Below the pieces are notes generated by a model. It saw only the letters and a program-made list of their open reading frames with translations, did no database searches and was not told the origin of the DNA. From positions 124,001-183,175 of the forward strand of contig NGBS01001173.1 of the NCBI GenBank assembly GCA_002245135.1: 59,175 nt of DNA, read 5' to 3'. The position numbers and the translations under genes were made by a program. This DNA comes from Proteromonas lacertae. Its lineage: Eukaryota. Shown piece by piece: positions 30,576-48,030 of this stretch; position 1 is the first letter of the stretch; each line of letters starts with the position of its first letter.

Positions 30576-30778
30576 AAAAATAACTAAATCACTTCATATA
30601 TTATTATTGTTTTGTTTGTTGTTTAATTAGGCTTTAGTGACATATTCTTCTGTTTTGAATGAATATGTTAAATCAAACAAAACTTCACTACTCATTCATA
30701 GAAACAGTGTGTAAAAACACACTATTACCAACATGTAACTCACTAATCATTTCAATATTTCATTCTATATATAGTATA

Positions 30779-30981
30779 TAAATGGGACCCTGGGACATTG
30801 TCACAGAGTCCTAACGAGTTTTCTAGGGGTCCGTCCCTTTCTAGATTCAGAGTTGACCTTTACGGGAGCTTCATCGATGCAATCGATGAAGCTCCCGTAA
30901 AGGTCAACTCTGAATCTAGAAGGGGACGGACTCCTAGAACACTCGTTAGAACTCTGTGACAATGTCCCAGGGTCCCATTTA
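30779..30981. repeat. Left terminal hairpin: 100-bp stem, GCA loop at 30879-30881
   Basis: Arms 30779-30878 and 30882-30981 are reverse complements with 4 mismatches. Confidence 0.95.
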
Positions 30982-30990
30982 CGTAAGGTT

Positions 30991-31096
30991 CCTACGGGAT
31001 TCCTCCCTACGGGGTCTACTACCTACGGAGTCTACTTCCCTACGGGGACTGCTGTAAGCTATTTCTATACCTATCTATGAGACGATCTCCTACGGG
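30991..31096 (+). repeat. CCTACGG(G) direct-repeat array next to the hairpin
   Basis: Copies at 30991, 31006, 31022, 31039 and 31089; mirrored as CCGTAGG in the right TIR. Confidence 0.8.
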
Positions 31097-31233
31097 TACT
31101 CCTGGAAGCTATCTAGAAGTGTTGGTTACCTCGAGGTGATGATTCTAATCACGCTCTTGACTCTCCTTGCTACGCTGGTGACCTTGTAAAGGCTTTTAAT
31201 TGAATCGTGGAAACCAACTGGGGAACCGGGAGT

Positions 31234-31301
31234 TTACAATTGTTAACTTGTTACCAATTGTTAACTAGTTACCAATTGGTAACAAGTTAACAATTGGTAA
31301 C
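31234..31301. repeat. Array of 16-bp palindromes GTTA(A/C)CAATTG(G/T)TAAC at 18-bp period (4 units)
   Basis: ttacaattgttaac-tt-gttaccaattgttaac-ta-gttaccaattggtaac-aa-gttaacaattggtaac. Confidence 0.9.
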
Positions 31302-31347
31302 TTCGATAGCCTTGAATAGTTGAAATCGTTTACCTAGTCAAGTATAG

Positions 31348-32420
31348 ATGGATCCAACCCAAGCAACATCTCCATTGAATGATAAAGCAGTCATAGAACA
31401 AGACACCTCCAGGGACTTCAATTTAGTTTCTCAACAATCCCAGGTAAACAACTACACACCACTGGTAGAAACATCCTCCGAAGGTAAGGTCAAGAGATCG
31501 CATAAGGAACTTCATAAGGCAGCTGAGGATCATCCAGCTAAGAAGTCACGGGTCAACAAAGTTTATTTCATCGAAGCATTGCTGGAGGTGCCAAGGAAGT
31601 GATTGATCCTAGCAGTATTATAAACGTACGTATTGCTATGTTCAGCTTTGCTTACTCCGCAATCGCAGCTCTTCATCATCATCAACTCAGTAAGAACGCA
31701 GTCAATGAGAATCCCGAGATGTACTCCAAGTACTTGAGCAAGTACATCATTAACTACCAACACCCTATAGCAAATCCAATATCATCTTCCAGACTCATCG
31801 ACTCCTTTGAAGAGAACAATAACGTGGGTGTTCACATCTATCAATTAAAGGGATCGCATTTACGATTAGCCAGACGCAGTAGCCGTACTTTACCGATGAC
31901 TTCTCCTGATCGTTTTGTTTACTTACTTTACATAGAAGCCGAGGAGGATGATCAAGTTCAATATCATTATACCGTGATTGCTAATCCAATGGACGTGATC
32001 GATGTTGATAATCCCGTGATTACTTCTGCTAGAGTCACCGACAAGAACATTTCCTGTGGTCTCTGTCCTTACTGCCTTAAGAAGTACCTAGGTTCCATTA
32101 ATGATCACATCCAACTCACCTGCTTAACTAAGGAGTCCAAGAAAAGTTATTGCAACTCCATGGGAACATCATCGTCTCTTAAGAAGAAGAAGGAGTCGGT
32201 ATACATTCAAGGTCATCTTGTAAAGTGCCTGAAGCTGATGAAAGAACTCAAGTACCAGGATGATGAACAGAAGCAAAGTATCCGATCGTTGAATCAGAGC
32301 TACTTGAAGATCATCAACAAGTTGGTTGTTGTCTATACTCCTGATGATAAGCAGTTGGAGGAGCTCTTATGCAAGACGGGTGATGTTATCAATAAGCTTA
32401 CAGCTCTTGATGATCCTTAA
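31348..32420 (+). CDS. Stand-alone remnant of the Polinton pPolB N-terminal OTU-like domain plus C2HC Zn finger; frameshift near 31593
   Basis: Adding one A joins the ORFs as LLEVPKEVIDPSSIINVRIAMFSFAYSAIAALH...FEENNNVGVHIY...VYLLYI...HYTVI...CPYCL...H...C. This matches the Polinton pattern LPKE...IINV.N.D..CF.WS.LAALH...FE..N.I.INVY...LL...HY..I...C..C. Confidence 0.6.
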
Positions 32421-45528: not shown

Positions 45529-45544
45529 CTTAAGTCCTTTAACT

Positions 45545-46661
45545 TTATCGTATATTGTATCTCTTGATGAGCTTGCGGTTCCTTGTTATACCAGCATCTT
45601 CATTTACCTTGAGGAGTTCATTTGACTTATAGCACTTATCGGAGATGTCCTTGACCGGAATTCATGTTAGCATCTCCGAGGATGAAGGAGTAGGTGTTCT
45701 TTGCGATGATCCGATAGATGACGTCAGAGTAGAATAAGGCCTTCTCTATCTTGCTTACTCGACGTTCCTTAACTCTTACGAAGTCCCCAATATTGAACTG
45801 TTCCATGGCAGTGTTCCTTTGGTTACACATCTCGGCGTGATTGTAGAAGTACTGCTGGACATCTTCGTCGTAGAAGACTTCATTGGGAGTGAACCAGGAT
45901 AAGGATGCCTTCGGTTTATTGTTGTACTGATCAACGACTTCATCGATAAGTAGATTGAATTGTCTTACGTTCAGAGCTCCTCGAGAGTGGAAGTCAACAT
46001 CAGCTATTCTCTTGTAAAGCAATCTCTTGACCTCAGAGACTGAATGATCAAGGATGCTCATTACATGATGCTCATCTACGTCCTTAACGATGTACTGGAT
46101 CTGGTGTTGTATAAGCTCCTCTTGAAACAAGTTGCATAAGAAGGCTCCTTCCTTGTCTGTTAAGATCGTTGATACATTGCGGCTATGCTCATCCCTTAAA
46201 GGTTCCTTCTCATGTCCTTGATAGAAGAACCGTTGCCATGCCTCCATCACTGAGTTATAAGTCTTATCAGGCATCCAGTAACAGAATACCTTCCTGCTAG
46301 GTACGTGAACTAGATAAAGCCATCCGTACTTGTGACTATTCTTTGGTAAGAAGAAGACTATGTCCATTTGATAGCTGTCAGGAACTGGAATGATCTTTAA
46401 GGGCTTTATCCTGGTGTTGATGTAGACTACCTGATTGCCCGGTTGTCTGTAGTAGAACTCCTTTACGTATTCTACTGGGATTGATTTATCGTAGTGATGT
46501 ACTTGCCTTATGAACTGATTAAGAGATAGGAATGGTAAGGTGTTGTAAGTCCTTTGAAGTAGATCCTCAGGAGATGAGAAGGTCGGAGGTTGATAGAACG
46601 TAGACTTCACGTATGGCTTTATAGGGATCTCCTTACTTGTGTTATTGATGGTTGCTTCCAT
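45545..46661 (-). CDS. Retroviral-type (rve) integrase of the Polinton class; frameshift near 45661 in the C-terminal domain
   Basis: YQMDIVF (D), ILTDKEGAF (D), SILDHSVSEVK (third acidic residue), YNNKPKASLSWFTPNEV, FNIGDFVRV. The shifted frame continues IPVKDISDKCYKSNELLKV...NIR* to 45545. Confidence 0.9.
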
Positions 46662-46756
46662 GGGATCATTGACAATCAGGTTACCTTCTTCTTCTTCAGG
46701 CTGTTGTAGTTGTGGATCTTCAAGGGTTGATTCATCATTGGGAAAGACTTTACTAC

Positions 46757-47230
46757 TTAGAGACGATAGACAATGACTTTGTTGGTGCTTCTACGGGTAC
46801 TTGATTTACCACCTTTACTTCTCTCGGCCTTATGAAGTTTTACTTTACCTAGTCCATTGGTTTTGAGAACATCACTTATCATCGGTCCAGCTACAGGAAT
46901 GTACTTGCTTACCGTGGATAGCACCTTGCTTTTCTTAAAGAAGTTACCTATGTCCTGGAAGAATCCCTTGCCTTTGACTTTTGACTTCTTCGATTGTTGG
47001 TTCTCAAGGAAGCTGCTATAAAGGGTTGGAGTATAATAACAATAAGCAGGAGCCGGGTTGTACTTTCTCTTGGTTGCTTTATCGGAGCTAGCAAAGGGTA
47101 ATGGCTCCAATGGATCCTCGTAATAACATTGATCGGTAAGATCATCCACGGAGGTGAATCTGGATCTACTATCAAGACTATCCTCGTTGGAGTATTGATG
47201 AGTGTTGGGATTGTAGGTATGGATAGGCAT
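46757..47230 (-). CDS. Putative membrane-lytic virion protein (adenovirus pVI/cupiennin-like)
   Basis: Adenain-type site VKGK|G is followed by the amphipathic helix GFFQDIGNFFKKSKVLSTVSKYIPVAGPMISDVLK and a basic tail. Confidence 0.6.
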   Translation of the reverse strand: MPIHTYNPNTHQYSNEDSLDSRSRFTSVDDLTDQCYYEDPLEPLPFASSDKATKRKYNPAPAYCYYTPTLYSSFLENQQSKKSKVKGKGFFQDIGNFFKKSKVLSTVSKYIPVAGPMISDVLKTNGLGKVKLHKAERSKGGKSSTRRSTNKVIVYRL

Positions 47231-47472
47231 CTTACTTTGACCTTGGAATTAACAAACTGGAATGCCATTCTTGGGAGCTTCCTAAACGTAGAAACCCCGT
47301 AGTTTCTACGGTCTATCAGTCTCATTTTTCCCGGACAATTGTTGAGCATTGGAACACTTTACCTAGGTGAATTATAAGGTCATTGTAACTTACCTCTAGG
47401 AAGCTCCCGAGAATGCTTATCATTATCTTCAAGTGCCCTTGAGAAATCCACAACTAGCTAGAACCTCCCGGA

Positions 47473-47558
47473 GTTACCATTTGGTAACTTGTTAACAATT
47501 GTTAACTTGTTACCAATTGGTAACTAGTTAACAATTGGTAACAAGTTAACAATTGTAA
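47473..47558. repeat. Right array of 16-bp palindromes (5 units, 18-bp period)
   Basis: gttaccatttggtaac-tt-gttaacaattgttaac-tt-gttaccaattggtaac-ta-gttaacaattggtaac-aa-gttaacaattgtaa. Confidence 0.9.
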
Positions 47559-48030
47559 AGTCCCAGTTCCACGATGAGTTTCCACGGTTCAATTAAAAGC
47601 CCTTACAAGGTCACCAGCGTAGCAAGGAGAGTCAAGAGCGTGATTAGAATCATCACCTCGAGGTGAACCAACACTTCTAGATAGCTTCCAGGAGTCCCTG
47701 TAGGAGATCGTCTCATAGATAGGTATAGGTAGTATAGAAATAGCTTCCAAGAGTCCCCGTAGGGAAGTAGACTCCGTAGGAAGTAGACCCCGTTAGGAGG
47801 AATCCCGTAGGAACCTTAAGTAAATGGGACCCTGGGACATTGTCACAGAGTCCTAACGAGTGTTCTAGGAGTTCGTCCCCTTCTAGATTCAGAGTTGACC
47901 TTTTACGGGAGCCTTCATCGATTGCATCGATGAAGGCCCCGTAAAAGTCAACTCTGAATCTAGAAGGGGACGGACTCCTAGAACACTCGTTAGGACTCTG
48001 TGACAATGTCCCAGGGTCCCATTTATATAC
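47491..48030 (-). repeat. Right terminal inverted repeat
   Basis: Reverse complement of 30774-31301. Confidence 0.95.
47821..48025. repeat. Right terminal hairpin (~100-bp stem, TGC loop at 47923-47925)
   Basis: TAAATGGGACCC...TTCATCGAT-TGC-ATCGATGAA...GGGTCCCATTTA. Confidence 0.95.

Follow-up and report, generated by a model that had tools for sequence, protein, structure and literature searches.

An integrated Polinton-type element of Proteromonas lacertae with a relic of the protein-primed polymerase and long terminal hairpins

Virion genes, polymerase relic and ends of the element

The window analyzed here, 59,175 nucleotides of Proteromonas lacertae contig NGBS01001173.1 (positions 124,001 to 183,175), contains a discrete integrated insert of 17.26 kb at positions 30774-48030 of the window, which carries virion genes, an integrase gene and, as its first gene, what appears to be a relic of the DNA polymerase of Polintons, a protein-primed enzyme of family B (pPolB). 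An earlier, sequence-only reading had described the insert as a complete integrated Polinton-like virus (PLV) without a recognizable replicase and with a composition distinct from that of the host. Its size and composition are as described, the GC content being 0.42 within the element and 0.27 and 0.25 in the DNA on either side.

The virion and integration genes assigned in that reading were confirmed by motifs and by family matches. An A32-like packaging ATPase (39814-40731, - strand) has the Walker A and Walker B motifs and a downstream Arg motif, and scores 77 bits against a hidden Markov model (HMM) built from 10 open reading frames (ORFs) of Polinton-like contigs. An adenain/Ulp1-type maturation protease (42217-43020, - strand), in which the His, Asp, Gln and Cys residues are present, matches Pfam C48 (E 6e-6) and scores 36 bits against an HMM from five such ORFs. 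The rve integrase (45545-46661, - strand), whose last ~37 codons lie in another frame after a frameshift near 45660, scores 100 bits against an HMM from 10 such ORFs and matches Pfam rve with an E-value of 3e-5, which is below the curated cut-off. Its catalytic triad is D-D-D, the third acidic residue being Asp as in its sole homolog (P0006).

The 450-aa product of 40777-42129 (- strand), the putative major capsid protein (MCP), had been named beforehand as a gene whose fold, if not a double jelly roll (DJR), would refute that reading. The predicted model has low confidence (pLDDT 48), but a DJR capsid comes out on top in each of three structure libraries. The top 10 Foldseek matches in the PDB are all DJR capsids (Sputnik, iridovirus, mavirus; best E 7e-7), the best ones in BFVD are capsids of a MELD virus and of PLVs or virophages, and VIA returned the capsids of faustovirus and African swine fever virus with Z scores of 8.6 and 8.2 at root-mean-square deviations of 12-14 (top match: 14.2, 281 aligned). 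The likeness is one of predicted fold; the MCPs of Sputnik and mavirus are among the top fold matches, yet are only 10-11% identical to that of the element. Four homologs with 33-35% identity were found, the Polinton-like MCP families of the fetched loci gave no match at the sequence level, and neither an MCP alignment run against viral and metagenome contigs nor searches with the ATPase and integrase revealed related loci. Twenty family HMMs from the fetched Polinton-like contigs detected neither a penton nor any other minor capsid gene, the penton HMM having been built from nine penton-like ORFs of these loci with a family label given by recognition, and most orphan ORFs not having been folded. 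The word "complete" was not confirmed: besides the undetected minor capsid gene, this copy as assembled contains two frameshifts, one in gene 1 and one in the tail of the integrase, as well as one or two in-frame stops.

Gene 1 (31348-32420, + strand) begins with a hydrophilic N-terminus of ~80 aa in a different frame from what follows (frameshift near 31590), continues with a vOTU plus zinc-finger domain (31644-32147), and ends in a tail of 90 codons that has the coding signal of the element and no likeness to a polymerase. By eye, 31542-32420 looked like the N-terminal region of a Polinton pPolB. To examine this likeness we retrieved 16 viral loci that carry a pPolB motif, a full-length enzyme being encoded in 14 of them, and built an HMM of 14 Alpha-type pPolBs. 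Its single match in the element is 31644-32147 (34.7 bits, E 1e-11; the best of 1000 shuffles reached 9.4), so the earlier statement that no ORF shows PolB motifs has to be revised, this being the vOTU domain of a pPolB. The catalytic Cys aligns to a Ser, and the His is retained. In pPolBs the layout is terminal protein (TP), vOTU, exonuclease (EXO) and PALM, and the vOTU is inactivated where the terminal protein needs no cleaving off (Krupovic 2024, PMC11071308). Neither neighbor of the vOTU was recovered: over 174 six-frame tiles of the element read through stops, the TP and polymerase sub-HMMs reached at most 3.2 and 1.1 bits, and no trace of an exonuclease or polymerase was seen. A polymerase split by introns was also considered and ruled out, because these tiles give no polymerase signal and 88% of the element is filled by other ORFs.

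Is such a gene known from elsewhere? A search with gene 1 found no longer homolog, and its single HMMER match (P0005), a repeat-rich bacterial-type surface protein, was rejected as an artefact. In the ESM Atlas the nearest named clusters are Endonuclease_7 and DNA_pol_B_2 (0.78-0.83), a weak lead only. In none of the 16 fetched loci is an intact pPolB accompanied by a stand-alone vOTU gene; the consulted parts of Krupovic 2024 mention no stand-alone inactivated pPolB vOTU gene, and in those of three further papers the term "OTU" is absent. To get from a pPolB to gene 1 takes three separate changes, loss of the upstream domain, replacement of Cys by Ser and acquisition of a new tail, and one deletion supplies one of them. 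A simple recent deletion therefore does not explain gene 1. We infer from the sequence a pPolB Polinton as the ancestor of the element, with a polymerase gene that was remodeled in several steps, and the loss of the polymerase looks old rather than fresh. As a separate observation, six Alpha-type pPolB ORFs (L004, L007, L008, L010, L012 and L014) have in their interior a junction-resolvase domain, Endonuclease VII, that scores above or near the Pfam cut-off and might process terminal palindromes.

As had been reported, the element is bounded by terminal inverted repeats (TIRs) and a probable target-site duplication. The left TIR (30774-31301, + strand, 528 bp) and the right TIR (47491-48030, - strand, 540 bp) differ by 24 substitutions and six gap events over 541 aligned columns. 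TATATA is present on both flanks (30768-30773 and 48031-48036, both without strand) when the element is read as G..C, the exact end shifting by a few bases in a run of TA. With the alternative ends AG..CT, which are canonical for Polintons, the 6-bp duplication matches at five of six positions, and the TA run leaves the exact terminus ambiguous. The host flanks themselves (30757-30773 and 48031-48047) form an imperfect inverted repeat reaching ~17 bp past the TIRs, which is either a palindromic target site or the degenerate ends of longer TIRs.

Each end of the element can form a hairpin of ~200 nt. The left palindrome (30779-30981) has 100-bp arms and a 3-nt loop and begins 5 nt inside the end; its counterpart on the right is at 47821-48025. 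For the left TIR the folding energy is -171 kcal/mol, compared with -57 +/- 5 in 100 shuffles (z = -22; 0/100 as stable). At its inner end each TIR has a further palindrome, smaller than the first and composed of short repeats (31232-31305 and 47470-47563); those on the left are of the GTTAAC/CAATTG type and are likely sites of protein binding. The two arms of the right hairpin have two features in common that are absent from both left arms, a weak hint; flip and flop isomers were also sought, and the loop orientation is the same at both ends, which is uninformative with n = 2. A third, partial TIR copy that the sequence-only reading did not mention is internal (38203-38317, + strand, the orientation of the left TIR, 90% identical); it comprises half of the inner hairpin arm and adjoining DNA, and divides the element into a 7.4-kb block of orphan genes and a 9.8-kb block with the virion genes and integrase. 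A search for the TIR pattern gave no match in viral contigs and one in metagenomes, an isolated 19-mer without a hairpin. Scans for tRNAs and Rfam families found no tRNA and only hairpin-driven matches to miRNA models under the gathering score.

Orphan genes and neighboring DNA

The interior of the element is ~88% coding. The coding signal learned by a model from the MCP, ATPase, protease and integrase genes alone is present in all of the orphan ORFs and in the tail of gene 1, which argues that the orphans are long-term residents; that the left block is captured host DNA was ruled out by GC content and the same signal. None of the orphans belongs to a family in Pfam, PHROGs or NCBIfam. For 33934, 35192 and 36464 there was no match among phage genomes either, and 33934 also had none among PDB sequences or plasmids.

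Among them, ORF 33934-35151 (+ strand, 405 aa) has an HUH-like HVH motif at aa 236-238, whereas the sequence-only reading had seen no HUH motif in the element. That earlier statement is not confirmed. Fragments picked for the motif matched Pfam Relaxase weakly (E 0.064 and 0.084); of 15 control H-x-H fragments none matched an HUH family, and unrelated matches at such E-values were common. A geminivirus-type Rep HMM gave 2.8 bits (best shuffle 10.5), a second Rep HMM gave no match, the single-sequence fold is uninformative (pLDDT 32), and the best ESM Atlas score is 0.79. Going by its sequence, we regard 33934 as the best candidate for a nickase or a terminal-protein-like factor, that is, as a lead. 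The sole Walker A motif of the element is that of the packaging ATPase, so there is no signature of a superfamily 3 (SF3) helicase, in keeping with the earlier reading; likewise, no motif of PolB, archaeo-eukaryotic primase (AEP) or tyrosine recombinase was found outside the ATPase.

The other orphan genes of the left block are a 255-aa ORF (32605-33372, - strand), whose N-terminal half is basic and rich in Ser, Arg and Lys and which is a candidate DNA-binding core protein; a small gene (33525-33880, - strand) with an in-frame stop and the coding signal of the element in both halves; an ORF of 394 aa (35192-36376, + strand) that is helical by eye; and a gene at 36464-37861 (- strand) with an acidic repeat region followed by a helical-looking domain. 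Both 35192 and 36464 have only weak helical or coiled-coil matches. The latter gene contains a candidate GT..AG intron of 30 nt (37709-37738) resembling a 28-nt intron candidate of the host, which suggests nuclear expression, the alternative being an in-frame stop. If spliced, it encodes the longest product of the element, 455 aa, in agreement with the upper limit of ~455 aa given earlier. Within it, 12-bp tandem repeats (37430-37560) encode E-P-x-K and S-E-E-S units.

In the right block there are ORFs of 272 aa (38378-39196, + strand) and 175 aa (39232-39759, + strand); one of 350 aa (43020-44072, - strand) with a Gly-rich hydrophobic segment, which from its position is likely a virion protein; a Lys/Arg-rich ORF of 144 aa (44198-44828, - strand) followed by a stop and 64 in-frame coding-like codons, either one interrupted gene or two genes; and an ORF of 210 aa (44896-45528, + strand) with one hydrophobic segment. 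The last, of 157 aa (46757-47230, - strand), has two Gly-x-Gly sites flanking an amphipathic stretch, and we take its product to resemble protease-processed virion peptides such as adenovirus pVI.

Immediately upstream of the internal TIR piece lies a GC-rich patch (38096-38180, + strand) in which there are motifs resembling the A box and B box consensus of a Pol III promoter. It could be a VA-RNA-like (virus-associated RNA) or tRNA-derived RNA; ARAGORN and Rfam found nothing there, and its folding is unremarkable (z = -0.4). The element (31310-47470) is also poor in A/T runs, runs of four numbering 2.8/kb against 20/kb in the host, a figure not corrected for GC content. Adjoining the right end is a C-terminal fragment of a protein kinase (48040-48255, + strand; Pfam Pkinase E 0.03), the upstream part of which was not seen by eye in the left flank. 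Farther out, tandem giant host genes of up to 2583 aa (566-7816, 18568-22397 and 22824-30575) look by eye like very extended class C G protein-coupled receptors, in which a multi-pass membrane region comes after repeated periplasmic-binding-protein domains. Two pairs of host duplications are 99-100% identical (52035-52437 with 58775-59175, and 54294-54593 with 58427-58726) and are either recent segmental copies or an effect of the assembly.

Possible modes of copying without a recognizable replicase

A major question arising from this gene content is "How is such an element copied?" The reading we favor, while giving it somewhat less than an even chance, is that this is a Polinton-type virus that has kept only a disabled fragment of its pPolB, the rest likely having been lost long ago, and that host DNA polymerases likely copy it in the nucleus, its hairpins being the probable origin or excision signal. 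As pieced together from the sequence, host RNA polymerase II and the spliceosome would express its genes, including the one with the 30-nt intron; the integrase would nick the TIR ends and insert the element with a 6-bp duplication, and its copy number could rise through transposition coupled to host replication. The palindromes would fold back or be extruded and be cut by a host nuclease or the product of ORF 33934, which would yield a free linear genome with self-priming ends for the ATPase to package, and the protease would then mature the capsid. The normal Polinton size of the element and its ~88% coding density favor this reading, because nothing looks excised. The remodeling of gene 1, the association of TIR palindromes with non-pPolB elements in Halocafeteria (10.64898/2026.07.28.741278) and the host-like intron also count in its favor. 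A bolder version, that an entire family amounting to about a tenth of the host genome has dropped protein priming, with a dead vOTU stub, 200-nt hairpins, a divergent HUH-type nickase (33934) and AAV-style (adeno-associated virus) or replicative-transposition copying on host polymerases, strikes us as improbable.

Several points weigh against the favored reading. It rests on a single copy. No nickase, resolvase or helicase has been established in the element, and with no penton found, virion formation is uncertain. The outermost 5-6 nt of the TIRs lie outside the palindrome and are unlike its inner flank in sequence, so that the end facing the integrase would be lost under hairpin transfer of the strict parvovirus type but kept if priming by a protein began at the very terminus. 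An old rearrangement is recorded by the internal TIR piece, and a polymerase gene could have disappeared there without leaving a trace. Nor can divergence alone date the loss, since the vOTU is only somewhat lower-scoring than its companions: compared with members of the respective families it scores 29-39 against 115-149 bits, the integrase 83-106 against 188-294 bits and the ATPase 56-80 against 62-289 bits.

What, then, of the other explanations? The element may quite possibly be a long-lived non-autonomous partner, which supplies integrase and capsid and depends in trans on a pPolB and terminal protein encoded by autonomous sisters, or else by a separate polymerase segment with the same ends. 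Such a bipartite organization is found in bidnaviruses, and the division into 7.4-kb and 9.8-kb modules would suit it, as would a possible AG..CT end and the terminal bases beyond the hairpin, both of which fit protein priming; the Endonuclease VII domain, present in 6 of 15 pPolB control fragments, could cut such palindromes. Helpers may exist, given that 285 hits of this capsid cluster are tabulated for the genome, with 16 distinct gene rows listed. However, gene 1 was remodeled, which is more than a cut, and large end hairpins accompany non-pPolB elements in the accessible part of one published survey (10.64898/2026.07.28.741278). A long end hairpin was found in 0/16 of our pPolB loci (one of the 16 has an internal palindrome with 25-bp arms), the contigs of which may lack the true ends.

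It is unlikely that we are dealing with a one-off, dying copy, from which recombination between elements removed the replicase and which is no longer propagated. The frameshifts and stops described above, the 24 TIR substitutions, the internal TIR piece and the undetected penton could all be laid to decay, but had the TIRs diverged after the element inserted, the coding DNA should contain ~14 nonsense mutations and ~79 indels, and at most two of each are seen. Dating by TIR divergence was ruled out because it predicts far more lesions than observed; the TIRs either already differed at insertion or are poorly called. Moreover, the MCP, ATPase and protease genes are open with their catalytic motifs intact, and since stops in such multi-copy elements are often assembly artefacts (Bellas 2023, PMC10120064, in the text available), the few lesions of this copy may be assembly errors. 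That the element is autonomous after all, with a polymerase, primase or helicase diverged past recognition in 33934, 35192 or 36464, seems to us quite improbable. The orphans of ~400 aa without homologs and the poor fold of 33934 leave room for it, and the same text states that replication enzymes may escape detection in such elements; against it stand the want, in all ORFs but the ATPase, of motifs for Walker A, PolB, AEP or tyrosine recombinase, of any family, phage-genome or (for 33934) PDB-sequence match, and of anything beyond weak helical or coiled-coil matches for 35192 and 36464.

Comparison with known elements and viruses

How replicase-less Polinton-like viruses are copied is a question that recent surveys have raised (Bellas 2023; Haro et al. 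2026), and this element appears to be a record of the direction of change, from a pPolB ancestor to a disabled vOTU stub, with long hairpins where protein priming acted. Its family, moreover, numbers 285 copies in an assembly that is publicly available. The capsid itself is in print: Table S3 of Bellas 2023 (PMC10120064) has a 450-aa Proteromonas lacertae MCP, Foldseek-confirmed there, that by eye is identical to that of the element over the 400 residues shown, and Table S4 assigns 285 hits to one cluster, by that estimate ~11% of the genome. As we read its columns, the cluster stands outside the named groups and not in the virophage columns. Many such elements are said there to lack a detectable polymerase, but the passages available treat the Proteromonas element as a capsid gene only and describe neither the vOTU relic, nor the hairpins, nor the missing polymerase. 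Within the literature covered, which did not extend to the gene maps for this genome (Bellas Dataset S1) or to preprint supplements and figures, no paper describing the gene content of the element was found.

The rve-encoding virophages and PLVs of Halocafeteria seosinensis resemble the element in their Bigyra host, in palindromes adjacent to the target-site duplication and in the lack of a pPolB, according to the available part of Haro et al. (2026; 10.64898/2026.07.28.741278), in which TIR palindromes accompany the non-pPolB elements and a hairpin-priming model is proposed for them. They encode other replicases, however, their palindrome is drawn with 52 nt and their PLV MCPs cluster apart from Proteromonas, whereas the element has no detected replicase and retains the pPolB relic. 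Nor was a replicase of the non-pPolB PLV kind (SF1/SF3 helicase, PolA or AEP fusion) detected in it, there being no second Walker A motif and no family match, with no resolved structures for the orphans. The VC40 PLVs (10.64898/2026.06.19.733378, as far as available) are likewise 15-20 kb long with no detectable replication genes, but they have an MCP like that of nucleocytoplasmic large DNA viruses (NCLDV)/Yaravirus, a methyltransferase and Tlr6F, with no integrase or protease listed, and are a different lineage. The sequence-only reading was right about an integrated capsid-coding element with an integrase and without a detectable replicase, but its suggestion of an undescribed class is not supported, because of the ties to pPolB Polintons and because the capsid cluster, replicase-less PLVs and hairpin priming were already in print.

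Parvoviruses, AAV included, replicate by a rolling hairpin with terminal palindromes of 100-250 nt and rely on host polymerases. With these viruses the element shares terminal hairpins, and "works like" is the most that the likeness permits, for it has no SF3 helicase, a candidate HUH motif only, a DJR capsid and a DDE integrase, and its palindrome does not run to the terminus but leaves 5-6 nt of TIR outside, unless those bases are host target DNA. The 30-nt probable spliceosomal intron points to the nucleus. These comparisons do not establish the element as a virophage or as a rolling-hairpin replicon.

A further comparison is with Alpha-type OTU-pPolB Polintons/Mavericks, including the Blastocystis MELD virus, which in the portions consulted (PMC8502044; PMC11071308; 10.1101/2023.08.22.554363) have in common with the element its size, TIRs, target-site duplication, rve integrase, ATPase, protease, DJR MCP and vOTU. 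It differs from them in its lack of TP, EXO and polymerase domains, in a vOTU that is inactivated and stands alone, in the penton that was not found, in the 200-nt end hairpins and in an MCP without a match to the fetched Polinton-like families. Polintons span 13-25 kb with TIRs of 100-1500 bp and target-site duplications of 5-8 bp (Jeong 2023, 10.1101/2023.08.22.554363, as seen in part); the element lies within all three ranges and has the rve integrase, DJR MCP, A32-like ATPase and adenain-like protease, whereas of the TP-vOTU-EXO-PALM pPolB that defines Polintons it has only the inactivated vOTU relic. That remnant, together with the integrase, ATPase and protease, ties it to the pPolB-type Polintons, and we conclude that, as far as gene content tells, the element is a Polinton derivative rather than a Polinton in the strict sense.

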